Shown: piece after piece, positions 19,260 to 52,606 of the stretch | Numbering within the stretch: the first letter of the stretch is position 1 | How the letters are laid out: every line of letters starts with the position of its first letter | Assembly: GCA_009694465.1 (NCBI GenBank) | Contig: SHUW01000001.1 | Coordinates: 3,723-67,722 of the forward strand | Source of the DNA: Ilumatobacteraceae bacterium | Lineage (GTDB): Bacteria > Actinomycetota > Acidimicrobiia > Acidimicrobiales > Ilumatobacteraceae | DNA: 64,000 nucleotides | Reading direction: 5' to 3' | Notes under the pieces: model-generated | What the model was told of the DNA's origin: nothing | Databases searched by the model: none | What the model saw: the letters and a program-made list of their open reading frames with translations, nothing else | Position numbers and translations under genes: made by a program

Positions 19260-19282
19260 GTTTCTGATACCGTGTCAAAAAC
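19260..19282. promoter_or_regulatory. Candidate operator, copy 1 (GTTTCTGAT-ACCGT-GTCAAAAAC)
   Basis: Lies in the 83-bp gap between divergent SDR genes (starts at 19211 and 19295). Each arm has one mismatch to the consensus. Confidence 0.6.
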
Positions 19283-19294
19283 TAGTCGGGATCA

Positions 19295-20224
19295 ATGAAT
19301 CTCTCACAACTTTTAGGGGCAATGGTGGAGATAAATCACAGGAACCATCGTCCCGTCGCCCTCGTCACTGGAGCGAGCCGTGGAATCGGGCGGGCCATCG
19401 CCCTCGCCCTCGCCGAAGGTGGCTACGACCTAGTGATTACCGGGCGGACCATCACTGAAGGTGCAGGCATTAATCCAGCAACTGGACATCACCTTCCCGG
19501 AAGTCTCACATCAACGGCTCAAAGCGCCCAACAACTCGGAGCACAATGTCACACGGTCGTCAGTGATGTTCTCGATCTTGACGATATCGAGCCATCATTT
19601 CAACGTTGTCTGTCCGCTACTAGCGGTTGCATTGATCTTTTAGTGAACAACGCAATTTACGTCGGTTCGGGAAACGATCTGCGCTTCGCCGATTCAGACC
19701 CTGCAGACATTATTCGTCGCACAACAGGGAACTTCACCGCCCCACTTTTATTCACGCACGCTTTTCTACAACATGCTCTCAACAATGACGTCCACCCTGG
19801 CACAGGTTGGCGCGCCACTATCTTGAATATCACTAGTGATGCTGGTCAACGGATCCCCCAACAAGTTGCTGGCGAGGGTGGGTGGTCATTGATGTACGGA
19901 GCAACCAAAGCAGGCTTTCATCGGATGGCTGAAATGTTGGCCCTTGAATACGGCACGGCTGGAATTCGCGCCATCAATATCAACCCTGGACTTGTCACCA
20001 CCGAACGTGTCCTCGACACCGGTGTCGGCCTGCAATGGGTCGCCCGATCTGGAGTAGCCCCGGCAGTTATCGGGGCATCTGTGCTACGCCTGCTCACCGA
20101 CCAGGCCATCGAAAATGGCTCATATATCCATGCCCAGCAATACCTCGCCGAGCATCTTGGCAAAATCGCTTACCAAGCCCTACTCTTGGCTTCTCAGACA
20201 GTTTCGAATGGACAATCATCGTGA
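19295..20224 (+). CDS. SDR-family oxidoreductase
   Basis: TGASRGIGRAIA, NNA and YGATK motifs. Confidence 0.8.
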   Translation: MNLSQLLGAMVEINHRNHRPVALVTGASRGIGRAIALALAEGGYDLVITGRTITEGAGINPATGHHLPGSLTSTAQSAQQLGAQCHTVVSDVLDLDDIEPSFQRCLSATSGCIDLLVNNAIYVGSGNDLRFADSDPADIIRRTTGNFTAPLLFTHAFLQHALNNDVHPGTGWRATILNITSDAGQRIPQQVAGEGGWSLMYGATKAGFHRMAEMLALEYGTAGIRAININPGLVTTERVLDTGVGLQWVARSGVAPAVIGASVLRLLTDQAIENGSYIHAQQYLAEHLGKIAYQALLLASQTVSNGQSS

Positions 20225-21450
20225 GTTTTTCATCACCCGACACATACATCATCGGACCTACCAACCAAGAGATTTTGTTGCCAGAGCCCGAACACTCACC
20301 GGTTTACTACACGCTGATTTCTGTTGATGATCATCTTGTTGAACCGCCCAATATGTTTGACGGTCGCCTCCCCAAAGCCTTGCAAGATCAAGCTCCGCGC
20401 CTCATCGTTAATGAGCGTGGCCACCAAGTGTGGTCCTTTGATGGCCAGATTTTTAGTCAAGTTGGAATGAACGCGGTGGCTGGTCGCAAACCTGAACTGC
20501 GTTCACTTGAGCCAGCGCGTTTTGAAGATATGCGGCGCGGTTGCTGGGACATTGATGAGCGGATCAAAGACATGGATCTCATCGGATGTTGGGCATCACT
20601 CAACTTTCCCTCACAAGTCGCTGGTTTCGCTGGTCGAATCTTTAGCGCTGCAAGCAATCCTGAAGTTGGTTTGGCAACAATGCGTGCTTGGAATGATTGG
20701 CTCTACGAAGAGTGGTGGCAGAAGTACCCCGAGAGGATTATTCCCTGTGGCATTACCTGGCTAGCACCTGGACCTGATGGAACAGCACGCCTCGGTGCCG
20801 ATGAAATCCGCCGTAATGCCGAGCGCGGATTCGTTTCTGTGACCTTGCCTGAACGGCCTCATAACATTGGCTTTCCAAGCCTGTTCAGCGGATGGTGGGA
20901 TCCGATCATCGAGGCCTGCGTCGAGACCGAAACCGTCATTTCCTTGCATGTCGGTTCGTCCGGAATGTATCCCATGCCCGAAGGTGCTCCCGCTCTGCAA
21001 CTCGGAGCCACACTCTTCGGACAGTTGTCATTGAGCGCATGCGCCGAATGGCTATGGAGTGGATACGGCAATCGATATCCCGATCTCAAGATTGCTATGA
21101 GCGAAGGCGGGATTGGCTGGGTACCAATGTTGCTTGATCGATTAGAGAATGTTGTGGACCGCAGTGGCTATGGCGCGAATTGGGACTTACGACCCGCCGA
21201 AATTCTCCGACGCAACTTCTGGTTTTGCACCATTGATGATCCGTCGACAATCGACCTACACGAGGTCATTGGAGATGATCACATCATGGTGGAGATTGAT
21301 TATCCCCATGGCGACAGCACATGGCCTCATAGCCAATCTGTTTTGCGCGATGCGTGGGGACATCTTTCACCAGAGTTACTGCGCAAGTTTTGTTGCGAGA
21401 ATGCGGCAGCTCTCTATCGCCATCCGCTACCTCCACGAATTCTTCCATGA
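20221..21450 (+). CDS. Amidohydrolase-2 (ACMSD-like) family metal-dependent hydrolase
   Basis: Start placed at the GTG at 20221, in a GTGA overlap with the SDR stop. SVDDHLVEP, a C-terminal DYPHGD motif and the overall pattern match PF04909-type proteins. Confidence 0.7.
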   Translation: MSFSSPDTYIIGPTNQEILLPEPEHSPVYYTLISVDDHLVEPPNMFDGRLPKALQDQAPRLIVNERGHQVWSFDGQIFSQVGMNAVAGRKPELRSLEPARFEDMRRGCWDIDERIKDMDLIGCWASLNFPSQVAGFAGRIFSAASNPEVGLATMRAWNDWLYEEWWQKYPERIIPCGITWLAPGPDGTARLGADEIRRNAERGFVSVTLPERPHNIGFPSLFSGWWDPIIEACVETETVISLHVGSSGMYPMPEGAPALQLGATLFGQLSLSACAEWLWSGYGNRYPDLKIAMSEGGIGWVPMLLDRLENVVDRSGYGANWDLRPAEILRRNFWFCTIDDPSTIDLHEVIGDDHIMVEIDYPHGDSTWPHSQSVLRDAWGHLSPELLRKFCCENAAALYRHPLPPRILP

Positions 21451-24442: not shown

Positions 24443-24511
24443 CCCCCAAAAAATCGTTGATCACATTCTGTCAGATTGCATCGGTGACGCAAAGCCCGTT
24501 ACGGTCACACT

Positions 24512-25489: not shown

Positions 25490-27166
25490 TCAGATCAGGA
25501 TTGAACCGCGATTACTTCTTGCAAACTTGGCCCGTAATACATCAGCGTCACTTTTCGTGAACCTCTCAAAGCGAATTTCCTTACCTGTTCGCCACCAGAC
25601 CTGAGCATTCTCATTATTTTCAACATCGTGCCAACGACGCAAAACTAATTCGCGTTTGATCACTTTGTTGGTTTGCGTTAGGGGAAGTTGTTCGACAATG
25701 TGTACGAAAGTTGGCACCCACTTCGGACCGAGATCGGTTTGCTCGCCAAGAAATGCGGCAAATTCCACTGCATCCCATTGCGATCCTGGTTGTAGTTGCA
25801 ATGCGACCATCACCCGATCGCCAATTTCCGGATCGGGGACCCCGTACACGGCAGCCAAGATCACATCAGGATGACGCATCACGATACGTTCAATAGGAGC
25901 ACCGGCAAAGTTCTCTCCGTCAACGCGCATCCAGTCGGCACTACGACCAGCGAAAAAGAAAAAACCATTCGCATCGCGATAGCCCAAGTCGCCGGTCCAA
26001 TAAGCACCATTACGAATTCGCTCGTTATTGGCTTCAACATTATTCCAATAGCCCTCAAAAGTTCCACGCCCTGAATTAACGATCTCGCCTGTGGCCTCCT
26101 CGGCATTCAACAGACGACCATCACTATCAAACTCCGCCGTTGGACACTCCTCCCCCGTGTCGGGACTACGTACCGTGATACCTCCCTGAGGAGAAATACC
26201 CAATGAACCCTGCGGCATTCCTGGAACACGAACAATGGATACTCCGCCCTCGGTCTGACCATATCCGTCAGTGAGTTTGCAACCAAAACGTTCGGCGAAG
26301 CGTTCCAAATCCATTTCGGATCCTTCGTTTCCGAAACCGCGTTGTAACGGATTGTCGGAATCGTCCCCTTGTTCGGGGGTCGCCAAAATGTAGGCCAAGG
26401 GTTTGCCGACATAATTGAAATACGTCGCGCCAAACTTGCGTACATCGCTCAAGAACTCACTGGCTGAAAACTTACGTCGTAAAGCGATACAAGTACCGTT
26501 GACCAAACTGGGACCCCACGCCGTGAAGAGAGCATTGGAGTGAAAGAGTGGCATACAAATGTACGTCGTGTCATCTTGCGTCAGGGCCAAGATGGACTTC
26601 ATCGAAACTGCTACGGCACCCAACCTCTGGTGACTTGTGATCACAGCTTTCGGAGCACCGCTAGTACCTGACGTAAAGAGCAAGAGAAATGTGGCTGCCG
26701 GGTCAACGGGACAATCCTGCGCTGATGGCAGTTCTGCGCCGAGATAAGAGTCCACGAGATCAAGATAATCCTGCGACTCAGTCACAAAAACAGAGCCGTT
26801 AGCGTCGCCGAGATCAAGACCATCAAGCAAAGCCATCTGATGTTCTTCGGTGATCACGATCTGACAGGCGGTGTGAACAATATCGCGCGCTAACTCGACC
26901 CCACGACGAGTTGGGTTAATGCCCACGACTACTGAACCCGTCACCGCTGCAACGCCCAGCCACATCGTAAATTCTGGGGTGTTGTCCAGCAAAACACCGA
27001 TATGGGGCGGTGTGTCGCGGGGTCTCTCCGCTAAGACTTTGCGCCACAGCGCAGCCCGAGCGGCAACTTGCACGCACCATTGGCGATATGTCATCGAAAT
27101 TTCTTCAAAGCGAATCGCCACATTGTCATCATCGGCGCGTGCCCGCACATGATCGGCGAAAGTCAT
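25490..27166 (-). CDS. FadD-like acyl-CoA synthetase (AMP-binding)
   Basis: Start set at the ATG at 27166 (MTFADHVRA...), 10 nt after the upstream stop. LLFTSGTSGAPKAV and AYWTGDLGYRDANGFFFFAGR. Confidence 0.85.
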   Translation of the reverse strand: MTFADHVRARADDDNVAIRFEEISMTYRQWCVQVAARAALWRKVLAERPRDTPPHIGVLLDNTPEFTMWLGVAAVTGSVVVGINPTRRGVELARDIVHTACQIVITEEHQMALLDGLDLGDANGSVFVTESQDYLDLVDSYLGAELPSAQDCPVDPAATFLLLFTSGTSGAPKAVITSHQRLGAVAVSMKSILALTQDDTTYICMPLFHSNALFTAWGPSLVNGTCIALRRKFSASEFLSDVRKFGATYFNYVGKPLAYILATPEQGDDSDNPLQRGFGNEGSEMDLERFAERFGCKLTDGYGQTEGGVSIVRVPGMPQGSLGISPQGGITVRSPDTGEECPTAEFDSDGRLLNAEEATGEIVNSGRGTFEGYWNNVEANNERIRNGAYWTGDLGYRDANGFFFFAGRSADWMRVDGENFAGAPIERIVMRHPDVILAAVYGVPDPEIGDRVMVALQLQPGSQWDAVEFAAFLGEQTDLGPKWVPTFVHIVEQLPLTQTNKVIKRELVLRRWHDVENNENAQVWWRTGKEIRFERFTKSDADVLRAKFARSNRGSILI

Positions 27167-27176
27167 TACCTCATTC

Positions 27177-29294
27177 TCAGAGTCCACGGGCCACCTCATG
27201 AGCTGAATGCATGGCACCTTCGATGTAGTCAACTGACTTGGCATCACCGATGATGTGTACGGGAACTGACAAGTCTTGCAACGAATCTGCCACATGGGAA
27301 TCTGGATGCACATCCGATGCCACCACCACAGTGTCTGCGCGCACTTCAAATTCTTCCTCGCCAAGGCGGTAACGAACACTCACTGGACTAATGGAGATAA
27401 TTGATGCTTCGCGTATCAAGACAACCCCATGCTTGCTTGCTGCACTCACCGCAGTCCAACGCCTAGGCATTGCCATGGGAAGACCCATGTGCTGACCATG
27501 CTCCAAAACCGTGACGAGGCGGTGCCGTTGCGCTAAAAATTCGGCAAGTTCAAGTCCGACCAAACTCCCACCAATGACAACGACTCGTTTACCCACTGGC
27601 ATCCATGACTTGGAGAGTGTACGCAACCGCGCTGCGCTACGTAATAGTCCGATGGAGCGCCCAGCACTGATCAAACTCCGTTCCAAGCGACTGAGTGATT
27701 GAACATTGGCATCGTCATCTCCTTCGATCAAGGAGCGCAATCCATCGCCAGTCAAAACGTGCGGCAAATCTGCACCAGGGACATCTGGTAGCCCCCGTCG
27801 AGCCCCAGTAGCCACAATCACCTCATCTGGGTTCAATGCTTTGACGACCTCGCTCGTGGCCATTGTCGAGAGCAACACATCAACGCCTAGTCGCTTGATC
27901 TCAAATGTCAGCCAATCGAGAAGTGGCCCGTTGGCTGGGGTCGTCAATTGTGAAAACCACAATGTGCCGCCGAGTCGTGAGCCTTTTTCAATGAGCGTGA
28001 CTTTGGCGCCGCGAGTAGCGGCGACACGGGCCGCCTCCATGCCACCGGGTCCGCCACCAATGACCACGATATGTTTCGCTTTGGACATCGGTGCGAGCAC
28101 TGCAACGCTTTCATTACACAAAGCAGGATTCACTGCGCACTTTGGATTTCCGTCAAAAAAGTTTTGCTCAACGCAGACATAACAATTAATGCATGGTCGC
28201 ACCGATCGATACTGACCGCGCTGAAGTTTGTTGACTAAATCTGAGTCTGCTAATAATTGGCGACCCATGGAAACAAAATCGCAGTCCCCAGCGGCAATCA
28301 TCGCATTGGCCACTTCTGGCAACATCCGACCCACAGCCACAACAGGAATAGTCACATGCTGTTTGATCTTTTTCGCAAAATCGCGGTACTGGGCGACTTC
28401 TGTTGGCAATGGACCTTGAGTGAAGTCAGCGAAGGGATTGTGTGCGTTGGCTGACACATGAATCGCATCTGCACCTGCCTCTTCGATGAAAGCAGCAGCT
28501 CGCGCCGTCTCCTCTGGCCGCAGACCATCCTCAAGGCCATATTCAAAGCCATTCACCCGCACAAGTACTGGGTAGTTTTTGCCAACTACCGCTTTCACCG
28601 CGCGAACTACCTCGCACGTCAAGCGAACACGGTTTTCCAAGGATCCACCCCAGCGGTCCTCGCGTTTGTTGTATCCCCGCGAGAGAAATGATGACAACAA
28701 GTAACCGTGAGCGGCGTGAATTTCTATTGCATCAACGCCCCCTAATTGCACCCTTCGGGCTGCTTGAGCAAATTGATCGATGACCCATGCCAGGTCATCT
28801 TCGTCGGCAACTTTGTGGGTGGCTTTTTTTCCTTGTGTGGCGGTTGCCAAAGCCATCAACTCTGACATTGGATTATCGCGTAGGGCGCTCATATCCATCT
28901 GGCCTTCTAACAACGAAGGCACCAGTTGTGGACGCCCTTGCGCCACATCCACACTTGCAGTCTTTCCATGGTGACATAACTGCATACATAACTTGCCGCC
29001 CGCAGCATGTACCGAATCAGCCAAGCGTCGAATGCCAGGAATAAAACGGTCATCCGAAAATGCTGGCTGGTGAAGTGAGGTCGCTCCTACCGGCCAGGCC
29101 ACCGCACCCGTTCCGGTAATCACCATTGCTGTCCCACCTGCCGCTCGCGCACTGTAGTGGGCAATCTCGCCGTCACTCATTTCACCGTCAACACAGAGAT
29201 TCATATCCATCGCGGGCATCAGCACCCGATTGGATAACTCAAGCCCAGCAATACGCCCCGGCGATAAAAGGGAATCAAAAGATGGAGTACTCAT
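27177..29294 (-). CDS. OYE-domain NADH:flavin oxidoreductase fused to an FAD/NAD(P) domain (2,4-dienoyl-CoA reductase FadH / BaiCD-BaiH family)
   Basis: N-terminal old-yellow-enzyme TIM barrel, the Cys cluster CINCYVCVEQ...KCAVNPALC, then VVIGGGPGGMEAA and VVIGGSLVGLELAE dinucleotide motifs. Confidence 0.85.
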   Translation of the reverse strand: MSTPSFDSLLSPGRIAGLELSNRVLMPAMDMNLCVDGEMSDGEIAHYSARAAGGTAMVITGTGAVAWPVGATSLHQPAFSDDRFIPGIRRLADSVHAAGGKLCMQLCHHGKTASVDVAQGRPQLVPSLLEGQMDMSALRDNPMSELMALATATQGKKATHKVADEDDLAWVIDQFAQAARRVQLGGVDAIEIHAAHGYLLSSFLSRGYNKREDRWGGSLENRVRLTCEVVRAVKAVVGKNYPVLVRVNGFEYGLEDGLRPEETARAAAFIEEAGADAIHVSANAHNPFADFTQGPLPTEVAQYRDFAKKIKQHVTIPVVAVGRMLPEVANAMIAAGDCDFVSMGRQLLADSDLVNKLQRGQYRSVRPCINCYVCVEQNFFDGNPKCAVNPALCNESVAVLAPMSKAKHIVVIGGGPGGMEAARVAATRGAKVTLIEKGSRLGGTLWFSQLTTPANGPLLDWLTFEIKRLGVDVLLSTMATSEVVKALNPDEVIVATGARRGLPDVPGADLPHVLTGDGLRSLIEGDDDANVQSLSRLERSLISAGRSIGLLRSAARLRTLSKSWMPVGKRVVVIGGSLVGLELAEFLAQRHRLVTVLEHGQHMGLPMAMPRRWTAVSAASKHGVVLIREASIISISPVSVRYRLGEEEFEVRADTVVVASDVHPDSHVADSLQDLSVPVHIIGDAKSVDYIEGAMHSAHEVARGL

Positions 29295-29313
29295 CGGGGT
29301 TATTTCTCAGCCT

Positions 29314-32142
29314 TCATCGCTCGGAAGTATTGCTGCGTTCGATAGCCCGATCATCGGTCCCCAAATAACTGGCGATCACGGCCGAGTTGCTGCGAATTGA
29401 CATTGGGTCACCCTCGGCGATCACTTGGCCCGCTTCAAGGCAATAGATTCGATCTGAAATCGCCATAACCATTGGCATGTCATGTTCAATGATCAAAATC
29501 GCGGCCCCGAGATCCTTCTGGATCATGCGAATGAGTGGGCCAAAGGCTTCGGTTTCGCGCTGTGCGACTCCTGCTGTTGGTTCGTCAAGAAGCATCAATT
29601 TAGAGTCCAAGGCGATCAATGAACCAAGTTCAACAATGCGTCGCGTGCCAGTGGATAATTCGCCCATCAGTGAATCGGCATAACGACCGAGTCCTAGATA
29701 CGTAATGATTTCCTCGGACTCACGCCGCTTACGACCCTCAGCGCGAGGTGATGGTGGCAGGCCTAATAACGATGGAACAAGTAACGAACGTTGTCGCGAT
29801 TCAAGAGCCACCATTAATGTTTCGCGAACAGTCAGCGAACTGAAAAGTTTGGCATTCTGGAATGCACGCCCTTGACCAAGGCGGGCACGCTGATGGGCGG
29901 ACATTGAAGAAACATCTTGACCAAATAGTTCAATCACTCCCGAAGACGGCAGGAAACCGGAGAGAGCGTTGACAATCGTTGTCTTGCCAGCACCATTTGT
30001 TCCAATCAGACCCACAACTTCACCAACACCCACTGTGAGCGTGACATCATTAACGATGACTCGTCCACCCAAAATAACGCTCAAGCCATTCGCTCTGAGG
30101 GGCACATTCGTTGCATGCGTAGGTTTTGCCGAGGAGCCCAAGGAAGCAACCTCTGCACCTTCTTGACGAACAGGTGGCTTCCATCCATTTCGACGAGCAA
30201 TACCAGACAATAAGTTGTCACGCACCGAGTGCACGATAGAAATCAAACCACTAGGGAAATACAGCAACACAATGAGCATGCCGAATCCACTGGCGAACAA
30301 CTCCACTTGCTTCGTGCCGTCGAAAACCATTGGCACAGCGATGATCAGCAAGGTTCCAAGAACGGCACCAGTGATTGAACCAATGCCACCGACAACGGCA
30401 ACCGCCACGATTCGTAGCGACTCGTCAAAGTCAAACAGTAATCCATCGACTTTAAATTGAGCGTTGCGCGCTACCAAAGGCAGTAGTCCACCAGCGAGAG
30501 CGGCTAGTCCACCGGACACTGCGAATGCCAACAATTTGGCACGAGCCGGAGCCACCGTGTAGGCCGCTGCCGCCAACTCGTTGTCACGGGTCGCAATGAT
30601 TGAGCGCCCGATTCCAGTGCGGCGGATTCGCCACACAACCAAGATCGCCAAAACGGCAATGAACAAGCAGAAGTAATAGATGCCGTCGAAGTCCTTGCCC
30701 TGAACGGTCCAAAACAATAAGCGGAAGCCCTTCATACGATCAACATTGAGTTGCGCCGAACCTCCGCCACCCGGAGCGAATCTTTCAGCGACAATGAACC
30801 ATGAGCGAATCGCTAAACCGAAACCAAGCGTGACAACAGCGAGATATAAACCCTTCACTCGTAAGGCTGGGATGCCCACGATGACTGCGGCCAGCACACC
30901 CCAGGCGACACCGATTGGCAAGGCCACGAGATATGGCAATGAATTGGCGTAGTAAATCGTCAGGTACGAACCGAGGGCCACAAAACCAAATTGACCTAAT
31001 GACAATTGCCCGCCCCAACCCGTCACCACAGTCACGGACAACGCAATGATCAAATACACAGGAACTGCTGCAAACTTCAGTATCTCACTCGGCTTGTCAA
31101 CCTGACTGGGCACCACGAGAGCAATCGCCGCCAGTAATAGGAAGCCAAATAGCGTCAATGATCGGTACAGCGGATGACGTGTCAACTCCACACGGGCAGA
31201 GCGAACTTTTGAAGTGAGTTGCCATGACTCATCACGCATTGATTCCGAACGACCGAGAGTAAACAAAACCGCCACGAGAATCACAAATAACGTAGCGATA
31301 TTGGCACCTTTGGGAAGGTCGCCTCCCAAAGACCATGTGACAAGCATTCGGTCAACGACACCAGCCAAAAGTCCACCAACGAGAGTCCAGCCGAATGATT
31401 TCATCCGCCCGACCATGGCAGCGATGAGCGATAACAACAACAACTTTGGCCCTAATGCATTTTGTACTGAGGCCAGCGATCCGCCTTGAAGCGGAGCGAT
31501 GAGAAGCGCGCTAAGTGCTGCTAGAAGTCCGCCAAGAGCCCACACTTTCGTGGAAACAGAACGCACACCGATGCCTGCCAATCGAGCCGCAGGAAAGTTG
31601 TCTGCGGTAGCTCGTACCTGCATCCCAAAATGGCTGCGATGGAAAAGCCAACCGAGAAAAAGCATCAACACTGGCACCACTAACAACACGGTCAGTTGTG
31701 GTCCAGTCAGCGTGAGTCCAGCAATCTCCCAACTCCCGCCGATGAGGACTGGAAAAGTCACGCTTGTTGCTTGTTCGTCGGGAATCGGTAAGCGCAATTG
31801 CAACAACTGCACAACTTGAGTCAGACCTAAGGTGGCAACGAATAACAACAGTCGTGGTTGAGTGAATAGTCGGCGTAAAACAAGTTCAGCAGCGACTCCG
31901 AGAACCACACCACAGATCAATGCAAGAGGCAATGACAAACCGTAAGAAACGTTGTAACGGATCTGCAGTACAGCCATGACATATCCGCCGAAGGCACCGA
32001 TTTGTCCTTGAGCGAAGTTGATCACTCCAGTTGCTCGATAGATCAACAACAATCCGAAAGCCACGAGGGCATACACCAAACCTTGAATCAAACCATCAAG
32101 CAGAATGTCTCCAGAAAATGTCAGGGCGATCATTGAACTCAC
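29314..32142 (-). CDS. Triple-fusion branched-chain-type ABC component: LivH-like permease + LivM-like permease + LivG-like ATPase
   Basis: aa 1-~290 are LivH-like (GLVYALVAFGLLLIYRATGVINFAQG). aa ~330-~650 are LivM-like (GWGGQLSLGQFGFVALGSY). The C-terminal NBD carries GTNGAGKTT, LSTGTRR and LLDEPTAG. Confidence 0.85.
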   Translation of the reverse strand: MSSMIALTFSGDILLDGLIQGLVYALVAFGLLLIYRATGVINFAQGQIGAFGGYVMAVLQIRYNVSYGLSLPLALICGVVLGVAAELVLRRLFTQPRLLLFVATLGLTQVVQLLQLRLPIPDEQATSVTFPVLIGGSWEIAGLTLTGPQLTVLLVVPVLMLFLGWLFHRSHFGMQVRATADNFPAARLAGIGVRSVSTKVWALGGLLAALSALLIAPLQGGSLASVQNALGPKLLLLSLIAAMVGRMKSFGWTLVGGLLAGVVDRMLVTWSLGGDLPKGANIATLFVILVAVLFTLGRSESMRDESWQLTSKVRSARVELTRHPLYRSLTLFGFLLLAAIALVVPSQVDKPSEILKFAAVPVYLIIALSVTVVTGWGGQLSLGQFGFVALGSYLTIYYANSLPYLVALPIGVAWGVLAAVIVGIPALRVKGLYLAVVTLGFGLAIRSWFIVAERFAPGGGGSAQLNVDRMKGFRLLFWTVQGKDFDGIYYFCLFIAVLAILVVWRIRRTGIGRSIIATRDNELAAAAYTVAPARAKLLAFAVSGGLAALAGGLLPLVARNAQFKVDGLLFDFDESLRIVAVAVVGGIGSITGAVLGTLLIIAVPMVFDGTKQVELFASGFGMLIVLLYFPSGLISIVHSVRDNLLSGIARRNGWKPPVRQEGAEVASLGSSAKPTHATNVPLRANGLSVILGGRVIVNDVTLTVGVGEVVGLIGTNGAGKTTIVNALSGFLPSSGVIELFGQDVSSMSAHQRARLGQGRAFQNAKLFSSLTVRETLMVALESRQRSLLVPSLLGLPPSPRAEGRKRRESEEIITYLGLGRYADSLMGELSTGTRRIVELGSLIALDSKLMLLDEPTAGVAQRETEAFGPLIRMIQKDLGAAILIIEHDMPMVMAISDRIYCLEAGQVIAEGDPMSIRSNSAVIASYLGTDDRAIERSNTSER

Positions 32143-34394: not shown

Positions 34395-34415
34395 TTCTGA
34401 TGGTCAATCAGAAGT
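34393..34415. promoter_or_regulatory. Candidate operator, copy 2 (ATTTCTGAT-GGTCA-ATCAGAAGT)
   Basis: Abuts copy 3 in the divergent gap between the MFS-LivF gene and the SBP gene. Confidence 0.6.
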
Positions 34416-34436
34416 TTCTGACGGACCGTCAGAAAC
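34414..34436. promoter_or_regulatory. Candidate operator, copy 3 (GTTTCTGAC-GGACC-GTCAGAAAC)
   Basis: Perfect 11+1+11 palindrome. The arms are identical to those of copy 6 at 43868. Confidence 0.7.
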
Positions 34437-37821: not shown

Positions 37822-37844
37822 GAATCTGACGATGCGTCAGATTG
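37822..37844. promoter_or_regulatory. Candidate operator, copy 4 (GAATCTGAC-GATGC-GTCAGATTG)
   Basis: AATCTGACG-ATG-CGTCAGATT is a perfect 9+3+9 palindrome. It lies in the divergent gap between the starts at 37759 and 37882. Confidence 0.6.
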
Positions 37845-40291: not shown

Positions 40292-40314
40292 GTTTCTGAC
40301 ACTCTGTCAGATGG
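40292..40314. promoter_or_regulatory. Candidate operator, copy 5 (GTTTCTGAC-ACTCT-GTCAGATGG)
   Basis: Sits in the 30-bp divergent gap and overlaps the ATG at 40311. TCTGACA-CTC-TGTCAGA is a perfect core. Confidence 0.6.
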
Positions 40315-41078
40315 TGAGTAATTCTGACGCAACGAGCGAACAAGTAATCCGTGTTGAGACGCGTTCAACCGCCTCTGGAAAAATTGCCATCATCACCCTC
40401 AATCGCCCCCACGCCCGCAACGCTCTCAACTCGGCATTGTCGACCGCTCTACCCGCGGCTCTGAGCGAATCAGATGCCGATCCCGCTGTGCAGGCAATCA
40501 TCCTGACGGGTTCTGACCCAGCCTTTTGTGCAGGATTCGACTTGCGTGATGTCGGCAGTGGTGAGAAAAAAGGCGAGAATATTCACCCTGGCTATTGGGG
40601 TGCACTACCGCCAACGCGAGTCCCTGTCATTGGGGCAATTAATGGAGCAGCGATTACAGGTGGTCTGGAAATTGCTTTGGCTTGCGACTTTTTGATTGCT
40701 AGTGAACTTGCTCGCTTCGCCGACACTCACGCCAAAGTTGGGATGTTGCCAGGCTGGGGACTAACTATCAAACTTCCTCAACTGATCGGAGTGGCGCGGG
40801 CCCGTCGTATGAGTCTGACTTCAGAAATCATTGATGCTCAGACTGCATACCAGTGGGGCTTAGTCACTGAGGTTGTCCCCCACGCTGAACTGTTATCTCG
40901 GGCGATGACTTTGGCCGAGCAGATCAGCGCCAACCATCAAGAGAGTGTGTACGCAATTCGCGCACTCTACGACGAGGTCTCTCAACTTGGTGATACCGAT
41001 GCCGCTTACGAGATTGAAAACAAACGCGCTCGGGCGTGGGCTAAACAACGTTCGCAGATTCTTCGGGGAAACACATAA
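40311..41078 (+). CDS. Enoyl-CoA hydratase/isomerase family protein
   Basis: ITLNRPHARNAL, GSDPAFCAGFDLRD and GAINGAAITGGLEIALACD. No SD precedes the ATG, so the transcript may be leaderless. Confidence 0.8.
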   Translation: MVSNSDATSEQVIRVETRSTASGKIAIITLNRPHARNALNSALSTALPAALSESDADPAVQAIILTGSDPAFCAGFDLRDVGSGEKKGENIHPGYWGALPPTRVPVIGAINGAAITGGLEIALACDFLIASELARFADTHAKVGMLPGWGLTIKLPQLIGVARARRMSLTSEIIDAQTAYQWGLVTEVVPHAELLSRAMTLAEQISANHQESVYAIRALYDEVSQLGDTDAAYEIENKRARAWAKQRSQILRGNT

Positions 41079-42930: not shown

Positions 42931-42953
42931 GTTCTGCACTGTACGGTGGCGCA

Positions 42954-43867: not shown

Positions 43868-43890
43868 GTTTCTGACAGACTGTCAGAAAC
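43868..43890. promoter_or_regulatory. Candidate operator, copy 6 (GTTTCTGAC-AGACT-GTCAGAAAC)
   Basis: Perfect 11+1+11 palindrome, 49 nt upstream of the first gene of the igr-like operon. Confidence 0.7.
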
Positions 43891-43938: not shown

Positions 43939-45150
43939 ATGCACATCGGCGACACACCAGAGGAAGCGCTGTACCGCCAAGAGGCCCGCTCTTGGCTAGA
44001 AGCCCATGCCGCTCCCCGCGATCCCAGTGGTGGAACCTCAGATCACTCCCATAATCTCGCCGATCACATCCAAGAGTGCAGGAATTGGCAGCGCGTTTTG
44101 TATGACCACGGCTGGTCAGGCATCACTTGGCCAGCGCAGTACGGAGGGAAAGGTGCGAGTGCCATTCAGGCTGCCATCTTTGCTGAGGAGCAAGCGCACT
44201 TTGATGTGGCAACAGGAGCCTTCGCTATCTCCATTGGCATGGTCGGCCCCACTCTCATTGCCCATGGCACACCTGAGCAACAGCAAAAACATTTGGCACC
44301 GATTCTCAAGGGTGAGGAAGTGTGGTGTCAGTTATTCAGTGAGCCTGGAGCAGGAAGCGATCTCGCCTCACTGGGAACACGTGCTGTGCGCGATGGTGAT
44401 GATTGGATCATTAACGGACAAAAGGTGTGGAACAGTTTTGCCCAATTCGCTGAATACGCGATCTTATTAGCGCGTACAGATGTGGATCTCCCGAAGCATG
44501 CCGGCATCACTTACTTCATTCTCGATATGAAATCACCGGGAATTGAAGTCCGTCCGATTACTCAGATCACTGGGGTGCAACACTTCAACGAAACTTTCTT
44601 CACAGATGTACGCATTCCCCACGCCAACATTATTGGCGAACTCAATGCTGGTTGGAAGGGCGCTCAAACGACTTTGATGAACGAACGCAATCACATCGGT
44701 TCAGGTGGAAATTGGTCTGTTGATCAGTTGATTGATCTAGCCCAGCGGCGAGGTCTGTCTAGTCACCCACATTTTCGCCAAGGTCTTGCTCTCGCGCACT
44801 CCCGAGCCGAAACATTGAAGTACATGGGTCTCCGAATGCGTACCGCTATGAGCCAAAAACGTATGCCCGGACCTGAGGCCCTGACTTTGAAATTGGCCTA
44901 CGCCAACCACTGGCGACTCACAGCAGACCTTGCATCAGAGATTCTCGGCGCGGACATCATGTTGTGGGGCGACGATGCTGCCGAGGACAATCAGTGGGGT
45001 CAACACCTACTCAGTCAATTCGCTATCAGAATCGGTGGCGGCACGGATGAAATTCAACGCAATATCATCGCCGAACGCGGTCTTGGTCTGCCACGCGAAC
45101 CGCAAAATGACAAAGATGTACCGTGGCGTTCATTGAGTAAAGTTGGATGA
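43939..45150 (+). CDS. Acyl-CoA dehydrogenase (FadE family)
   Basis: Three-domain ACAD pattern. The C-terminal GGGTDEIQRNIIAERGLGLP is typical of actinobacterial FadE proteins. Confidence 0.9.
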   Translation: MHIGDTPEEALYRQEARSWLEAHAAPRDPSGGTSDHSHNLADHIQECRNWQRVLYDHGWSGITWPAQYGGKGASAIQAAIFAEEQAHFDVATGAFAISIGMVGPTLIAHGTPEQQQKHLAPILKGEEVWCQLFSEPGAGSDLASLGTRAVRDGDDWIINGQKVWNSFAQFAEYAILLARTDVDLPKHAGITYFILDMKSPGIEVRPITQITGVQHFNETFFTDVRIPHANIIGELNAGWKGAQTTLMNERNHIGSGGNWSVDQLIDLAQRRGLSSHPHFRQGLALAHSRAETLKYMGLRMRTAMSQKRMPGPEALTLKLAYANHWRLTADLASEILGADIMLWGDDAAEDNQWGQHLLSQFAIRIGGGTDEIQRNIIAERGLGLPREPQNDKDVPWRSLSKVG

Positions 45151-46184
45151 GGGAGAGTCTGATGAGTACGACCGCCGCTGACATTATTGTTGATATCACT
45201 CCCCAGGAAAAAGAATCTTTTTATGCGCGGTTACAGGCGTTTGTAGGACTCGAAATTGGCGAACCTGTCGTCGCTCCCGACGAAGTCAACGCCGCCATGA
45301 TTCGCCATCTTGTCGAGACTGTCGGCGATGACAATCCGATATACACAAATACGGAACTTGCTGCAACAAGCATTCATGGTGGGATTGTGGCTCCACCAAC
45401 AATGTTGCAGGCGTGGGTGATGATGGGCTTCAAGGGAACCAAACTCACCGGAGAAAGCCCCTACGAGAAAATGAATCAACTGCTCTTTTCACGTGGATTC
45501 ACCAGTGTTTTAGGCACTAATAGCGAGCAGACCTATGAACGCTATCTACGCCTTGGTGATCGGCTCACCCTGCGCACAACCATCGACTCAATTAGCAACG
45601 AGAAATCTACGGGCCTCGGTACTGGTCATTTCGTTGGCACCCGACAGGATTATTACGACGCCGATAAGCAGTTGGTTGGCTCAATGTTGTTCCGTATTTT
45701 CCGCTTCAAACCTGCCGCCAAAGCCCCTGTCAGCAAACCTCGACCAGTGCGACCGCGCCCTGCTACAACTCACGACAACCAGTGGTGGTTTGATGCTCTC
45801 AATGAAGGGGTTTTGTACGCCCAAGGTTGCGGTCAATGCCAGCAGGTTCGCTTCCCCACTGGTCCGATGTGCCCGTCTTGCCACAGTCTGAAGTGGACCA
45901 AAGTTGACATGCCACTTTCAGGGTCGATCCATAGTTTCGTCGTCGCGCACTACCCACAAGTTCCAAGCTTTGATTACCCATTACCAATTTTGCTCGTTGA
46001 TCTTGATCCTGTAGATGCCCCTGGCGGCGACAAAATTCGCATGGTGATGAACTCCGCCGACACCGATCTTGAGTCTCTTGTTATCGGAGCGCGAGTACGG
46101 ATTGACATTCGATCAACGGATCCCGATATGAAACTCCCCTTTGCCATTGTTGAGACCCAGCCGAGTAACGGAGCAAGCGCATGA
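45147..46184 (+). CDS. MaoC-N-terminal-type hotdog domain fused to DUF35 (Zn-ribbon + OB fold); ChsH2-like hydratase subunit
   Basis: N-terminal FAS1/MaoC_N-like hotdog, a Pro/Lys linker, then CGQCQQVRFPTGPMCPSCHS followed by an OB-fold segment. ATGA overlaps on both sides. Confidence 0.75.
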   Translation: MRESLMSTTAADIIVDITPQEKESFYARLQAFVGLEIGEPVVAPDEVNAAMIRHLVETVGDDNPIYTNTELAATSIHGGIVAPPTMLQAWVMMGFKGTKLTGESPYEKMNQLLFSRGFTSVLGTNSEQTYERYLRLGDRLTLRTTIDSISNEKSTGLGTGHFVGTRQDYYDADKQLVGSMLFRIFRFKPAAKAPVSKPRPVRPRPATTHDNQWWFDALNEGVLYAQGCGQCQQVRFPTGPMCPSCHSLKWTKVDMPLSGSIHSFVVAHYPQVPSFDYPLPILLVDLDPVDAPGGDKIRMVMNSADTDLESLVIGARVRIDIRSTDPDMKLPFAIVETQPSNGASA

Positions 46185-47305
46185 ACTTTGATCTTTCCGA
46201 AGAACAACAAGTTATTAAAGATTTAGCCCTGCAAATTTTTGAGGGTCAGGCCACCGTCGAACGAATCAAGGCTGCAGAAAAAGGTGACGGCTTTGACCGT
46301 CAGATGTGGGAGCAGTTATCGGCTAGCGGTATCCCTGCGCTGTGTGTTCCTGAAGAACACGGTGGTAGCGGCATGGGTGCCGTCGAACTTTCATTGGCCC
46401 TCATGGGTCAGGGCCGCTATGTCGCTCCCGTTCCATTGTGGAGCACGGGAGTTGTGGCATTAGCGATCACCGATTTTGGTTCACCCGAACAACGAGAAAA
46501 GTATCTCCCTGCTATTGCCTCAGGCACACTCATCACCACGATCGCTCTCGCTGAATCTGGAGCCAATGATGTGATGCGACCCACAGTCACAGGCACCATC
46601 GCTGGCAATCACATTACTTTGCGCGGCTATAAGCCCGCCGTGCCATTCGCTCAGCACGCAGATATCGCATTAGTGCCCATCACGCTGTCCGATAGAAGTG
46701 GTGAACAACTTGCCATCGTTATTGTTGATCTCCGTCAACCAGGAGTGACAGTTACTTCCGTAAAAACCACAAATCACGAACCACAGGGAAACATTGACTT
46801 TGATCTCACCATCGCCACTGAGAACCTTCTCGGGTACGGAACAGACACTGATGGTCGCGAAGCTCTTCGTTCAGTTTTCGAACATTCACTGACCGCTCTT
46901 GCTGCTCTGCAAGTGGGCGTCTGCGAAGGTTCATTGGCCTTTGTTTCCACCCACCTATCTTCACGTTTCCAGTTCGGTAAACCGTTGGCAGCATTTCAGG
47001 CCACAACTCAACGGGCCGCAGATGCCTACATCACGACAGAGGCGATGCGTGTCACGGCACTCAATGCCGCATGGCGATTGTCAGAAGGCTTTGATGCTCG
47101 ACGCGACGTTGCTGTGGCTGCCTATTGGGCCAGTGAAGGCGCTCAACAAGTCGTGACCGCTGGACAACACCTGCATGGTGGCATCGGTGCAGATGTTGAT
47201 TATCCCGTACATCGTTATTTTCTCTGGGGCATCCAACTCGCCAGTGTTCTCGGATCGGCCAGTGCTCATCTCGCCCGCCTTGGCAACCTGATCGCGCGGA
47301 CCTGA
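46181..47305 (+). CDS. Acyl-CoA dehydrogenase family protein (possible second subunit of a heteromeric ACAD)
   Basis: ACAD N- and C-terminal domains with the C-terminal QHLHGGIGADVDYPVHRYF motif. Translationally coupled to its neighbours. Confidence 0.8.
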   Translation: MNFDLSEEQQVIKDLALQIFEGQATVERIKAAEKGDGFDRQMWEQLSASGIPALCVPEEHGGSGMGAVELSLALMGQGRYVAPVPLWSTGVVALAITDFGSPEQREKYLPAIASGTLITTIALAESGANDVMRPTVTGTIAGNHITLRGYKPAVPFAQHADIALVPITLSDRSGEQLAIVIVDLRQPGVTVTSVKTTNHEPQGNIDFDLTIATENLLGYGTDTDGREALRSVFEHSLTALAALQVGVCEGSLAFVSTHLSSRFQFGKPLAAFQATTQRAADAYITTEAMRVTALNAAWRLSEGFDARRDVAVAAYWASEGAQQVVTAGQHLHGGIGADVDYPVHRYFLWGIQLASVLGSASAHLARLGNLIART

Positions 47306-47307
47306 TA

Positions 47308-47730
47308 ATGACGAACCTGCCCGCAACAAAAGAATTTGTCGGCGTGCAGATCGCTGATGAGTTGCCCGAACTACAGATACCGCTGACGCGGACCTTAATT
47401 GTCTCTACCGCAATAGCCACTCGCGACTATCAAGTAGTGCATCATGATCCGACAGTGGCTGCTGAACGCGGGTCGCAAGACATCATCATGAATATCTTGA
47501 CTTCAAACGCTTTTGTTGGGCGCTTTGTCACTGATTGGGCCGGACCCAATTGCTTTATCCGTTCAGTCAAAGTTCGATTGGGGGCCCCCAATTACCCTGG
47601 CGACACGATGATCATTGGTGGCAGCGTGACGGAGAAAAATGAGCAAACAAAAACTGTCACTATCGCCGTCAAGGGTTCCAACTCAATGGGTGACCACATG
47701 AATGCGACCGTTGAGGTGGTGTTGCCGTGA
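47308..47730 (+). CDS. MaoC-like (R)-specific enoyl-CoA hydratase hotdog protein; ChsH1-like
   Basis: 140-aa single hotdog. The ATRDYQVVHHDP segment resembles the MaoC dehydratase active-site region. Confidence 0.75.
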   Translation: MTNLPATKEFVGVQIADELPELQIPLTRTLIVSTAIATRDYQVVHHDPTVAAERGSQDIIMNILTSNAFVGRFVTDWAGPNCFIRSVKVRLGAPNYPGDTMIIGGSVTEKNEQTKTVTIAVKGSNSMGDHMNATVEVVLP

Positions 47731-48916
47731 GTATCAAAAGAACTGGCAATCAATTAGGTGGTAAGGCTGCCATCGTCGGCATTGGTGCCACTGAGTTTTC
47801 CAAAGAATCTGGGCGGAGTGAGATGAGTTTGGCCTCAGAGGCAGTTGCTGCAGCGATTGCTGATGCAGGTCTTGCGCCCAGTGACGTTGATGGAATGGTG
47901 ACGTACTCGTCGGACAATAATCCCGAAGTTGAAATTGCGCGTCACCTTGGTATCGGAAGTTTGCGACACTTCAGTCGCGTGCACTACGGCGGAGGTGCAG
48001 CATGTGGAACTGTGGCACTGGCCGCAATGGCGGTAGCCACAGGCGTGGCCGATGTTGTTGTCTGCTATCGCGCCTTCAATGAACGCAGTGGACGTCGCTT
48101 TGGAGCAGGCATTCAAGATATCCCCAATGCAGCGACCGCTGAGCGCGCCCAATTTTCTTGGACAACGCCTTTTGGTCAACTCACTCCGGCAAGTTGGGTA
48201 GCCATGGTTGCGCGACGTTACATGCATCTCTACGGTGCCACCTCGCAAGACTTTGGACGTGTTGCAGTCGCTGGTCGACGCCATGCTGCGACTAACCCCG
48301 CGGCATGGTTTTACAATCAGCCAATCACTCTTGAAGAGCATCAGGCCAGTCGCTGGATCGTTGATCCCTTACACCTTCTTGACTGCTGCCAAGAAAGTGA
48401 TGGTGGGCAGGCTTTGGTCATCACCAGCGCCGAACGTGCTCGTGATCTACCAAACACTCCAGCCTTAATTGTCGCGACTGCCCAAGGTGCTGGTGAAGAA
48501 CAGTGGACGATGACATCATTCTTTCGCGATGACATTGCCCAATTGCCAGAAATGAAAGTCGTGGCTGACGAATTGTGGACCTCGTCGGGACTGACCCCTG
48601 CTGATATCCAGACCGCCATTCTCTACGACCATTTCACACCCTATGTTTTGATGCAGTTAGAAGAATTTGGATTCTGTGGTCGTGGCGAGGCCAAGGACTT
48701 CATCCAAGATGGCGCCCTTGAAATGGGTGGAAAATTACCCATCAACACGCACGGTGGACAATTGGGTGAAGCATATATTCACGGCATGAACGGCATCGCT
48801 GAAGCCGTACGTCAGGTACGTGGAACAAGTGTCAATCAAGTAGATAGTGTTAAAAACGTTCTTGTTACTGCGGGAACAGGGGTCCCCACAAGTGGGCTGA
48901 TTTTAGGAGTCGATCG

Positions 48917-48920
<4 letters not shown>
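47727..48920 (+). CDS. Thiolase-fold lipid-transfer protein (Ltp2/SCP-x-like; possible retro-aldolase or thiolase)
   Basis: AAIVGIGATEFSK N-terminus and INTHGGQLGEAYIHGMNG C-terminus are typical of Ltp-type thiolase-like proteins. GTGA overlap with the upstream gene. Confidence 0.8.
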
Positions 48921-51353
<2,433 letters not shown>

Positions 51354-51382
51354 TTTCGTTTTTCTGCAGAACGAAAAATTAC

Positions 51383-52573
51383 TTATCGCGTCGAGCGAAC
51401 TAAACCAAGACCAGCAGTGGCTACTAGTTCGCGTTGAATTTCATTCACCCCACCACCAAAGGTGTTGATCTGGGCGGCCCGTGCGGCGCGCTCAACTTCA
51501 CCGTGAATGACAGCGCCCTGCGAGCCCTCACGAAGGTGTGAAACTGGGCCAAGGATTCCTTGCAAAATGCGGTACACCTCTACTGCCTTCTCGGTTCCAA
51601 AGACTTTGACGCCCGAAGCCTCAGCTGGTCCAAGCGTATTGTCAGCCACTGATTGCGCAAGCTTCCATGTCATCAAACGAATGGCATCAAGAAGAGCATG
51701 ACTCTTAGCTAAATCGGTTTGCACCCACGGCACATCAACCATTTTTTCACCAGCTGGTCCACCCGACGGCGTTACTCGACACCAAGTGGTTACGTCATCA
51801 AGTAGACGCTCCGTGAGGCCAGACAAGGCAGCCAAACCTACGCGCTCGTGGTTCAACTGCATCGTGATCAACTTCCAACCACCATTGATCTGACCAATCA
51901 CATTTTCTTTGGGAACTCGCACATCTGCGTAGTAGGTCGCTGTGGTCATCACACCACCCACGGTCACGATCGGCGTCCAAGTAAAACCAGGAGAATTAGT
52001 CGGCACGATAATCAGAGTGATGCCCTGATGCTTAGGGGCTTCGGTATCGGTGCGACAAGCCAACCACACATAATCACTTTGGTTAGCGCCCGAGGTGTAG
52101 ACCTTGTTGCCATTGATGACCCATTCATCACCATCGAGAACTGCTGAGCAACGCAAACTTGCAAGGTCGGTGCCCGACTCGGGTTCGGTGTAGCCAATGG
52201 CAAAGTTAATCTCGCCCTTCATAATGCCTGTGAGATATTGATCTTTCTGAGCCTGTGTCCCGTGCGCCATAATCGCTGGTCCCACAGTGTTTACTGTGAC
52301 AAATGGAAACGGTGCATGAGCTCGTTGAATTTCATCAAACATGATGAATTGATCCGTGGCAGGTCGGCCTTGCCCACCAAACTCTTTTGGCCACCCCAGT
52401 CCCAACCAGCCATCGGCTCCAATCTTGCGCACCAATTCACGAAAGAGCGGCTTGCCTTCACCAGATTCACCAAGTTCAGCGCGAACCTCTGGGGTCAATA
52501 AAGCAGCGAAATATTCTCGAAGTTCTTTACGCAATGCTTGCTGTTCGGCAGTTTCGGCGAGATACATATTCAA
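51383..52573 (-). CDS. Acyl-CoA dehydrogenase (FadE family)
   Basis: Full ACAD pattern with the C-terminal FGGGVNEIQRELVATAGLGL. Confidence 0.9.
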   Translation of the reverse strand: MNMYLAETAEQQALRKELREYFAALLTPEVRAELGESGEGKPLFRELVRKIGADGWLGLGWPKEFGGQGRPATDQFIMFDEIQRAHAPFPFVTVNTVGPAIMAHGTQAQKDQYLTGIMKGEINFAIGYTEPESGTDLASLRCSAVLDGDEWVINGNKVYTSGANQSDYVWLACRTDTEAPKHQGITLIIVPTNSPGFTWTPIVTVGGVMTTATYYADVRVPKENVIGQINGGWKLITMQLNHERVGLAALSGLTERLLDDVTTWCRVTPSGGPAGEKMVDVPWVQTDLAKSHALLDAIRLMTWKLAQSVADNTLGPAEASGVKVFGTEKAVEVYRILQGILGPVSHLREGSQGAVIHGEVERAARAAQINTFGGGVNEIQRELVATAGLGLVRSTR

Positions 52574-52583
52574 ACATTACCCC

Positions 52584-52606
52584 CGTTCTGACATAGCGTC
52601 AGAAAC
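52584..52606. promoter_or_regulatory. Candidate operator, copy 7 (CGTTCTGAC-ATAGC-GTCAGAAAC)
   Basis: Lies 11 nt upstream of the minus-strand ACAD start. TTCTGAC-N5-GTCAGAA is a perfect core. Confidence 0.65.

Follow-up and report, generated by a model that had tools for sequence, protein, structure and literature searches.

A conserved TCTGAC-N5-GTCAGA palindrome as the probable operator of a steroid side-chain and lipid catabolic regulon in Acidimicrobiia and Streptomyces

Introduction

Steroid and sterol breakdown in actinobacteria is understood almost entirely through the KstR and KstR2 regulons of mycobacteria and rhodococci. What controls pathways of this kind elsewhere in the phylum? 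The question is raised by a 64-kb stretch of DNA from an Ilumatobacteraceae bacterium (the window, which is the whole stretch analysed here; 53 % GC, from contig SHUW01000001.1), in which a catabolic island carries seven copies of a 23-bp palindrome in its promoter gaps. An earlier note, made from the letters of the window, had put the palindrome forward as a candidate operator of an unassigned regulon. Is it an operator, which genes would it control and which protein would bind it?

Our analysis indicates that the palindrome is very probably the operator of a dimeric helix-turn-helix repressor governing a steroid side-chain / branched or cyclic lipid regulon. As far as checked, it is a previously undescribed element of a conventional kind, a catabolic-regulon operator: no publication describing the motif was found in open-access text, where its sequence strings returned primer noise only, besides one table entry for the Streptomyces regulator SAV151 (see below). 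The concept of such regulation is unchanged by this finding. What it adds is a different, highly conserved operator that marks an igr-like side-chain operon and accessory genes in uncultured Acidimicrobiia, whose lineages are prominent in fresh water, the sea and soil, and in Streptomyces; the regulon extends well past the window organism, across Acidimicrobiia and into Streptomyces. The operator is a simple sequence tag with which the whole regulon could be predicted in such genomes, a TetR-type protein that we call TetR-X is a testable candidate for its regulator, and the occurrence of the same site in culturable Streptomyces and Actinospongicola offers a tractable experimental entry.

Results

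Seven copies of one palindrome lie at the promoters of the catabolic island

The seven copies are found exactly at the coordinates given in the earlier note (Table 1). With at most one mismatch, the core TCTGAY-N5-RTCAGA matches seven times in the window against 0.77 expected, and none of 100 dinucleotide-preserving shuffles reaches seven; the full 18-base pattern with at most three mismatches gives five matches against 0.03 expected. A symmetrised weight matrix derived from the seven sites and scanned over the 64 kb scores them at 22.9-35.4 bits, followed by a runner-up position of 10.7 bits at 24456-24478, which is the sole further match situated in a promoter gap, while the remaining matches, coding DNA included, reach at most 9 bits. 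Thus the comparison of coding with intergenic DNA, which had been suggested as a check, leaves sites only in promoter gaps, and the scan agrees with the note in having no site outside 19-53 kb (18-53 kb in its wording).

All seven sites are in non-coding gaps or touch a start codon, and six of them, as had been claimed, are between divergent genes, site 6 (43868) being between co-directional ones. Gaps longer than 60 bp make up ~1.5 kb of the 64 kb (~2.3 %), and the probability that seven independent chance placements would all fall into them is ~1e-11. Each promoter-bearing gap of this size in the 18-53 kb island holds a site, and the island's one convergent gap (35962-36037) holds none. The distance from site to start codon, for which published gene calls fix several of the starts, is 0-97 bp; sites 2, 5, 7 and 1 are only 0-16 bp from a start codon or abut a Shine-Dalgarno sequence, those next to sites 5 and 7 being G-rich. 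The 15-bp flanks of the seven copies have nothing in common. The motif is therefore over-represented and confined to non-coding DNA 5' of genes, as is generally expected of an operator.

Two of the arrangements deserve description. Sites 2 and 3, in front of the importer genes, stand in tandem with an offset of 21 bp. At site 5, the ATG of the enoyl-CoA hydratase gene (40311) is inside the palindrome and the Shine-Dalgarno sequence GGAGGG of the opposite gene directly adjoins it. Since the divergent starts here are only 30 bp apart, both promoters must be in the neighbouring coding sequence, or the hydratase mRNA must be leaderless. An extra half-site, TTCTGAC, is present nearby at 40322-40328.

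The palindrome is conserved in front of orthologous genes

The exact 18-base palindrome GTTTCTGAC-N5-GTCAGAAAC, searched in one genome per species (596 Gb), is present in at least 119 genome stretches, compared to ~9 expected by chance (596e9 / 4^18). Among the matches listed, ~111 are from Actinomycetota, including 28 from Streptomyces; ~75 are from Acidimicrobiia or unclassified actinobacterial metagenome-assembled genomes (Ilumatobacteraceae, Microthrixaceae, Actinospongicola and others), a few from metagenome-assembled genomes of Nitriliruptoria, Frankiaceae and Mycobacteriales, and just three have non-actinobacterial labels. We treated the matches in Patescibacteria, Chitinophagales and Bacillota, together with loci L061 and L116, as the expected few chance matches. 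Bifidobacterium was rejected as a host: the five contigs labelled Bifidobacterium breve or Bifidobacterium sp. (L010/L065, CAMAYS010000009.1; L105, L035 and L110) are mislabelled and carry Acidimicrobiia-type catabolic genes. The acyl-CoA dehydrogenase (ACAD) of L010 is 99 % identical to that encoded at 43939-45150 of the window, therefore this contig is from the same organism as the window and its label is wrong.

The genes next to the sites are similar from genome to genome. Among 216 open reading frames (ORFs) adjoining a site, 120 are homologues of island proteins, including ACAD394 (23), ACAD403 (21), P450 (10) and Amidohydro_2 (10), and further short-chain dehydrogenases/reductases (SDRs), luciferase-like oxidoreductases (LLM), Amidohydro_3, enoyl-CoA hydratase (ECH) and FadA5. 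Other site-flanking ORFs encode SDR, TauD, CoA-transferase III, aminotransferase, acyl-CoA ligase and IpdAB-type CoA transferase, and these genes without island homologues point, by their predicted functions, to metabolism of a similar kind. In Streptomyces it is an ACAD-ChsH2-ACAD-MaoC-Ltp2 operon that follows the site, and the first ACAD of this operon is ~57 % identical to the Acidimicrobiia protein.

Comparative footprinting, which the earlier note had recommended, could be performed at several promoters. In that of the igr-like operon, compared over 12 genomes of 53-72 % GC, a 22-bp block TTTCTGACAGACTGTCAGAAAC shows no variation between flanks that defy alignment, and the block includes the spacer AGACT, which the search pattern left unspecified. 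Loci fetched via the TetR protein described below, and not via the motif, also hold the site at orthologous promoters. In the gap between the ACAD and RibD_C genes (site 7) orthologous sites are found in L042, L121, L150, L124, L127, L131 and L133, and in the transporter promoter tandem sites are kept in the same 21-bp register in L011 (two sites) and L071 (three sites). The symmetric variant of site 4, GAATCTGAC...GTCAGATTC, is also present in L085, L094, L121 and L133. The site is thus conserved before orthologous genes with diverged flanks, again as expected of an operator. Such conservation is not uniform: the ACAD/RibD_C gaps of L143 (2595-2639) and L145 (6681-6725) have no TCTGAC site, therefore the operator content of a given promoter turns over between close lineages. 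By protein identity (90 % in the ACAD) these two are the closest relatives; both have TetR-X and lack the ACAD/RibD_C operator.

From 33 sites obtained independently of the pattern (genomes of 53-73 % GC) we derived the consensus nnW-TCTGAC-N5-GTCAGA-Wnn, in which positions 4-8 are invariant in 64-66 of the 66 half-sites and position 3 is divided equally between A and T. The two 9-bp arms with a 5-bp spacer that the earlier note had described are therefore correct as to palindrome and spacer, which measures 5 bp in all 33+ sites, but the outer GT/AC bases are weak and the specific core is W-TCTGAC-N5-GTCAGA-W. The spacer sequence itself is kept within each orthologous promoter (AGACT in 12 genomes for the igr-like operon, GGNCC for the transporter and ATAGY for ACAD/RibD_C; 43877-43881, 34423-34427 and 52593-52597 in the window, respectively). 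In high-GC genomes the palindrome is often extended inward to TCTGACGG-N-CCGTCAGA.

The target genes are predicted to degrade steroid side chains and lipids

Comparisons with Pfam, NCBIfam and PDB place the catabolic island at 18.3-53.3 kb, between housekeeping genes at 1-18 kb and 53-64 kb. Its most telling part is the operon behind site 6, with the order ACAD-ChsH2(DUF35)-ACAD-MaoC-Ltp2-P450-FadA5-type thiolase. Here the Ltp2 homologue matches the Thermomonospora Ltp2 chain 6OK1_A with E=9e-184, the ChsH2/DUF35 protein matches 4WNB, 4W78 and 6OK1_B, the ChsE-like ACAD matches Tcur3483 and 4X28, and the thiolase reaches 608 bits, above the cut-off of 515 bits set for NF005889, the NCBIfam equivalog for steroid 3-ketoacyl-CoA thiolase. 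With a ChsE-type ACAD pair, a ChsH1/ChsH2 MaoC hydratase with DUF35 and an Ltp2 aldolase, the operon has the gene set that characterises igr-like operons. The operon of sites 2 and 3 encodes a fusion of a major facilitator superfamily (MFS) protein with an ABC ATPase, a fused Liv-type permease and ATPase, an old yellow enzyme (OYE)/BaiCD-like flavoenzyme and an acyl-CoA ligase.

Overall, the island contains SDRs, two amidohydrolases, two acyl-CoA ligases, a SnoaL-like protein, a zinc-dependent alcohol dehydrogenase (Zn-ADH), the OYE/BaiCD-like flavoenzyme, an aldehyde dehydrogenase, two F420/FMN luciferase-like oxidoreductases, an enoyl-CoA hydratase and a Liv-type ABC importer with unusual fusions and a lipoprotein binding protein. 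The importer fusions, at 29314-34394 on the minus strand, are a 751-aa ORF (MFS_1 and ABC ATPase) and a 942-aa ORF (Liv-type permease and ABC ATPase); the MFS-ABC fusion is kept in L011 and L071 at 78-94 % identity. Homology thus supports a predicted substrate of the steroid side-chain/lipid type. The steroid- and lipid-catabolic assignment of the earlier note holds for side-chain and lipid genes, whereas ring-opening genes are not found in the island.

A TetR-type protein recurs near the sites

Which protein would bind the palindrome? When the ORFs of 100 aa or more in the gene model, 60 in number, were searched with Pfam, no DNA-binding domain was revealed in the window. Four of these ORFs had no match: one of 123 aa is basic, and the others encode a membrane protein, a lipoprotein and an acidic protein. 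Beyond the window, the listed genes of its 71.5-kb source contig (0.9 kb to the left and 6.6 kb to the right) likewise include no transcription-factor gene, so that the view that none is encoded in the 64 kb extends to the whole contig. We therefore looked for regulators near the sites in the 119 genome loci and ~90 further ones, using single-sequence seeds from 15 helix-turn-helix families and an iterated TetR profile. Over all loci searched, only one transcription factor recurs: TetR-X, a TetR protein of ~200 aa with the recognition region AGQ[RK]N[TSA]SALHYHFGG. One TetR in L061, another in L116, one MarR and one LysR were isolated cases and were set aside as chance neighbours, and Pfam on 96 other flanking ORFs gave no DNA-binding family among the 25 listed of 31 matched.

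The location of TetR-X is informative. Gene for gene, 42-58 kb of the window is syntenic with loci L121 and L122 (Ilumatobacteraceae, CP064997.1), which carry TetR-X between the thiolase and the convergent ACAD, and the same junction holds it in the syntenic L143 and L145. In the window this junction is almost closed (Table 1), which indicates that TetR-X was cleanly lost here or had never been gained. A thiolase-TetR-X unit convergent with a site-controlled ACAD is kept even in L131, where the other neighbours are all housekeeping genes. Clustering at 85 % identity gave 18 TetR-X lineages. The recognition helix is invariant, and in 7 of the 18 TetR-X is inside an operon headed by the TCTGAC site, which looks like autoregulation. 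The predicted structure (predicted local distance difference test, pLDDT, 93.5) has as its closest fold PsrA, PA3006 (2FBQ, template modelling (TM) score 0.72).

A second palindrome, [CG]TAATG-N5-CATTA[CG], with the same 6-5-6 geometry as the TCTGAC site, heads the thiolase-TetR-X operon in 5 lineages, 30-45 bp upstream. It is found nowhere else in ~1.5 Mb of loci or in the window. Such a position would normally mark it as TetR-X's own operator; TAATG-N5-CATTA is probably the operator of a second, related regulator. More distant TetR paralogues (L192-L213), 35-40 % identical, often have an ACAD gene next downstream, and most have GATACCCT ~10-17 bp before the start codon, which may be the -10 element of a leaderless transcript.

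Table 1. Palindrome sites, target operons and related features of the 64-kb window, with the TAATG palindromes of other loci (locus:position).
Feature	Coordinates	Strand	Sequence	Score	Context
Site 1	19260..19282		GTTTCTGATACCGTGTCAAAAAC	27.1 bits	SDR(-) start 19211 / SDR(+) start 19295; 48 bp to left start codon, 12 bp to right
Site 1, right-hand operon					SDR-Amidohydro_2-acyl-CoA ligase, SDR(+) first (Pfam)
Possible weak eighth site	24456..24478		GTTGATCACATTCTGTCAGATTG, one good half-site	10.7 bits	divergent promoter gap, SDR(-) start 24442 / Zn-ADH(+) start 24512
Target operon of sites 2 and 3	25490..34394	-			Pfam, NCBIfam
Site 2	34393..34415		ATTTCTGATGGTCAATCAGAAGT	23.5 bits	abuts MFS+ABC start codon (34394, minus strand)
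Site 3	34414..34436		GTTTCTGACGGACCGTCAGAAAC, perfect palindrome	34.7 bits	76 bp 5' of lipoprotein solute-binding protein gene (start 34513)
Site 4	37822..37844		GAATCTGACGATGCGTCAGATTG, symmetric variant	22.9 bits	Amidohydro_3(-) start 37759 / aldehyde dehydrogenase(+) start 37882
Site 5	40292..40314		GTTTCTGACACTCTGTCAGATGG	29.8 bits	30-bp gap, F420-type LLM oxidoreductase(-) start 40280 / enoyl-CoA hydratase(+) ATG 40311
Site 6	43868..43890		GTTTCTGACAGACTGTCAGAAAC, perfect palindrome	35.4 bits	14 bp past SDR stop codon; 48 bp before ACAD start
Target operon of site 6	43939..51353	+			igr-like
Convergent junction without TetR-X	51354..51382		inverted repeat TTTCGTT/AACGAAA		30 bp
Site 7	52584..52606		CGTTCTGACATAGCGTCAGAAAC	27.5 bits	ACAD(-) start 52567 / RibD_C(+) start 52649
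TAATG palindromes	L124:8760, L127:8553, L129:8045, L133:8774, L142:3499, L151:119, L158:258, L159:5761

Discussion

Proposed mechanism

From the placement and conservation of the sites and the identity of the target genes we infer the binding of a protein, repression by it, an inducer and a candidate for the regulator. An operator of 6-5-6 geometry would be bound by a repressor dimer, which would block binding or escape of RNA polymerase at both divergent promoters, since the sites are within 0-97 bp of the starts and some of them abut Shine-Dalgarno sequences or cover a start codon. Positions like these, on start codons and ribosome-binding sites, speak for a repressor more than for an activator. 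The two operators of the importer promoter would be bound cooperatively, as suggested by the 21-bp offset, which amounts to two helical turns and makes both face the same side of the helix. An acyl-CoA or free acid of the pathway would then release the repressor, as in the analogous cases of KstR, KstR2, FadR and PsrA. TetR-X is our candidate for this repressor, proposed tentatively.

Several observations weigh against this scheme or against the place of TetR-X in it. The island has one divergent promoter region without the motif, the 23-bp gap (42931-42953) of the SDR pair 42085-42930 (-) / 42954-43853 (+). A scan for sigma-70 promoters, which is uninformative for this phylum, showed no enrichment, and as -10 and -35 elements were not located, the overlap of operator and promoter follows from start-codon distances only. 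Most comparison loci were fetched by the perfect pattern, so the identity of the arms in the 12-promoter alignment is partly a result of selection, an effect of which the spacer and locus L121 are free. As for TetR-X, neither the window nor the remaining part of the 71.5-kb contig encodes it though the sites of the window are perfect, it was not seen within ~6 kb of the Streptomyces sites, and in L143 and L145 it is present where the ACAD/RibD_C site is missing. The TAATG palindrome stands in front of its operon in the 5 lineages described above, and in the distant paralogue subgroup D1 a similar palindrome, TGATGGAnTCCATTA, is found 26 bp before the start of the paralogue's own gene.

Alternative explanations

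The points against TetR-X favour an alternative in which another, distally encoded factor would bind the TCTGAC operator and TetR-X would be a local repressor of the thiolase-TetR-X unit acting through TAATG-N5-CATTA, belonging in many lineages to the TCTGAC regulon itself. The seven strong sites kept by the window without TetR-X in 71.5 kb, and the restriction of the TAATG palindrome to the thiolase-TetR-X operon, are among the observations in favour of such an arrangement, and we regard it as quite possible though short of probable, about as likely as TetR-X being the regulator, with some probability left for neither. It has difficulties of its own. No other transcription-factor gene was found beside any of ~200 site-flanking transcription units; the TAATG palindrome is missing in 13 of the 18 lineages despite the invariant recognition helix, while the TCTGAC site is present in 17 of them (L153 ends inside the convergent ACAD); and the seven cases of TetR-X within a TCTGAC-headed operon look like autoregulation. 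The earlier note had advised looking for a regulator gene with the site in its own promoter: in these seven lineages the site heads the operon of TetR-X, and the 5 with the TAATG palindrome speak against it. It is also conceivable, although we regard it as rather unlikely, that Acidimicrobiia (including abundant freshwater Ilumatobacteraceae) and a Streptomyces clade have their igr-like steroid/lipid genes under a third regulon, independent of KstR and KstR2 and organised as a two-operator cascade, the TCTGAC-N5-GTCAGA operator of which would have kept every base across two classes of Actinomycetota. TetR-X would be its master repressor or a subordinate, with its own operon alternating between TCTGAC and TAATG-N5-CATTA operators by lineage, and the window organism would have lost TetR-X cleanly at the ancestral junction and kept all operators.

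The remaining alternatives concern the nature of the element and not the identity of its ligand. An activator, for example of LysR or IclR type, is improbable: TGAC-N5-GTCA can be read as following the loose LysR rule T-N11-A, and sites 3 and 4, 37-76 bp before start codons, are at a distance compatible with activation, but an activator cannot work from the positions of sites 2, 5, 7 and 1, and none of the sites has a linked gene of LysR or IclR type. More improbable still is an element acting in RNA, where the 9-bp stem with its 5-nt loop would be a terminator or attenuator, an RNase processing site, a stabiliser or the target of an RNA-binding protein. Perfect copies do fold at -14.5 to -16 kcal/mol and the pair of sites 2 and 3 at -29.6 kcal/mol, a terminator-like scan picks up site 3, site 6 follows a stop codon by 14 bp, and position 3 shows weak symmetric co-variation, being the same in both halves in 22 of 33 sites against 15.6 expected. 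However, the hairpin energies range from -5.4 kcal/mol (z = -0.2) to -16 kcal/mol, site 1 has two uncompensated mismatches and no stability (z = -0.23), and the bases are invariant, not co-varying, TCTGA being kept in nearly all half-sites whatever the GC content. Stem stability varies while the bases stay the same, so it is the sequence that is conserved and not the stability of the stem. In addition, with divergent starts 30-123 bp apart one RNA orientation is unable to serve both genes, six of the seven sites lack a T-run (only site 3 precedes T-rich sequence) and there is no Rfam match. The chance that we are dealing with a dispersed repeat of the repetitive extragenic palindromic (REP) or miniature inverted-repeat transposable element (MITE) type, or with a recombination site that is intergenic by accident, appears negligible. 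Multiple, palindromic, intergenic copies are what such a repeat would give, but these are alike only within 23 bp, without the shared flanks by which the earlier note would have recognised a repeat; they occupy promoter gaps only, leaving the convergent gap empty, and keep their position before orthologous genes across bacterial classes although the surroundings cannot be aligned. Pfam on the ORFs gave no transposase or integrase gene in the island.

Comparison with known regulators

With the repressor-operator reading in mind, the most obvious systems for comparison are KstR and KstR2. The KstR operator has the consensus TnnAACnnGTTnnA, a 14-bp palindrome (Kendall et al. 2007, PMC1995591), and that of KstR2 is A(n)CAAGnnCTTG(n)T / AAGCAAGNNCTTGCTT, as quoted in PMC8228715. 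The palindrome described here shares with them the form of a short palindromic operator in divergent promoter gaps of steroid-catabolic operons, with one motif serving a multi-operon regulon, and the targets overlap in igr-type side-chain genes, FadA5 and cyp and, among relatives, in FadD3/IpdAB-type genes. In both cases a TetR dimer that leaves the DNA on contact with a CoA-thioester intermediate would be the mechanism to expect. However, TCTGAC-N5-GTCAGA (17-23 bp) is unrelated in sequence and geometry to TnnAACnnGTTnnA (14 bp) and AAGCAAGnnCTTGCTT, as the earlier note had stated: the KstR pattern matches the window twice (5262 and 16495; 0.95 expected), both times in coding DNA outside the island, and the KstR2 pattern AnCAAGnnCTTGnT not at all. 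TetR-X does not match the structures of KstR or KstR2 by sequence (E <= 0.01) or among the top 50 folds, and the regulator gene here is not divergently paired with a target.

The nearest resemblance in sequence that we found is to the sites of SAV151, a TetR regulator of Streptomyces avermitilis, which read TCTGAC-ATGGTGTCGT-GTCAGA and GAACTGAC...GTCAGTTC (review PMC10933834). Both cases have the CTGAC/GTCAG half-site in inverted orientation and an actinobacterial TetR, but the arms of the SAV151 site are 10 bp apart compared to 5 here, so that the half-sites face differently, and SAV151 is a local regulator of neighbouring genes unlinked to igr-like operons. A SAV151-type site was ruled out by the uniform spacer of the 33+ sites. 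The best structural match of the TetR-X model, PsrA of Pseudomonas, is a TetR protein that represses genes for acyl-CoA dehydrogenase and beta-oxidation and senses a lipid (fatty-acid) ligand. In contrast to the TCTGAC site, its operator is [GC]AAAC-N2-4-GTTT[GC], different in sequence and spacing; PsrA is proteobacterial and only 21 % identical to TetR-X. BkaR, Mce3R and Lcin1 (Nocardioides simplex) stand for actinobacterial TetR-type or predicted regulators of lipid, branched-chain and bile-acid clusters with motifs found by the same comparative logic. Their motifs are of another kind, GTTA-N-T-N4-A-N-TAAC for BkaR, a non-palindromic one for Mce3R and TCCCGGT[C/G]ACCGGGA for Lcin1, and all the known motifs, including those of KstR and KstR2, were rejected since none match. 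The element is unusual in three ways: Acidimicrobiia and Streptomyces share it base for base, it would take the place of KstR-type control at igr-like operons, and it stands in a two-palindrome relation with TetR-X.

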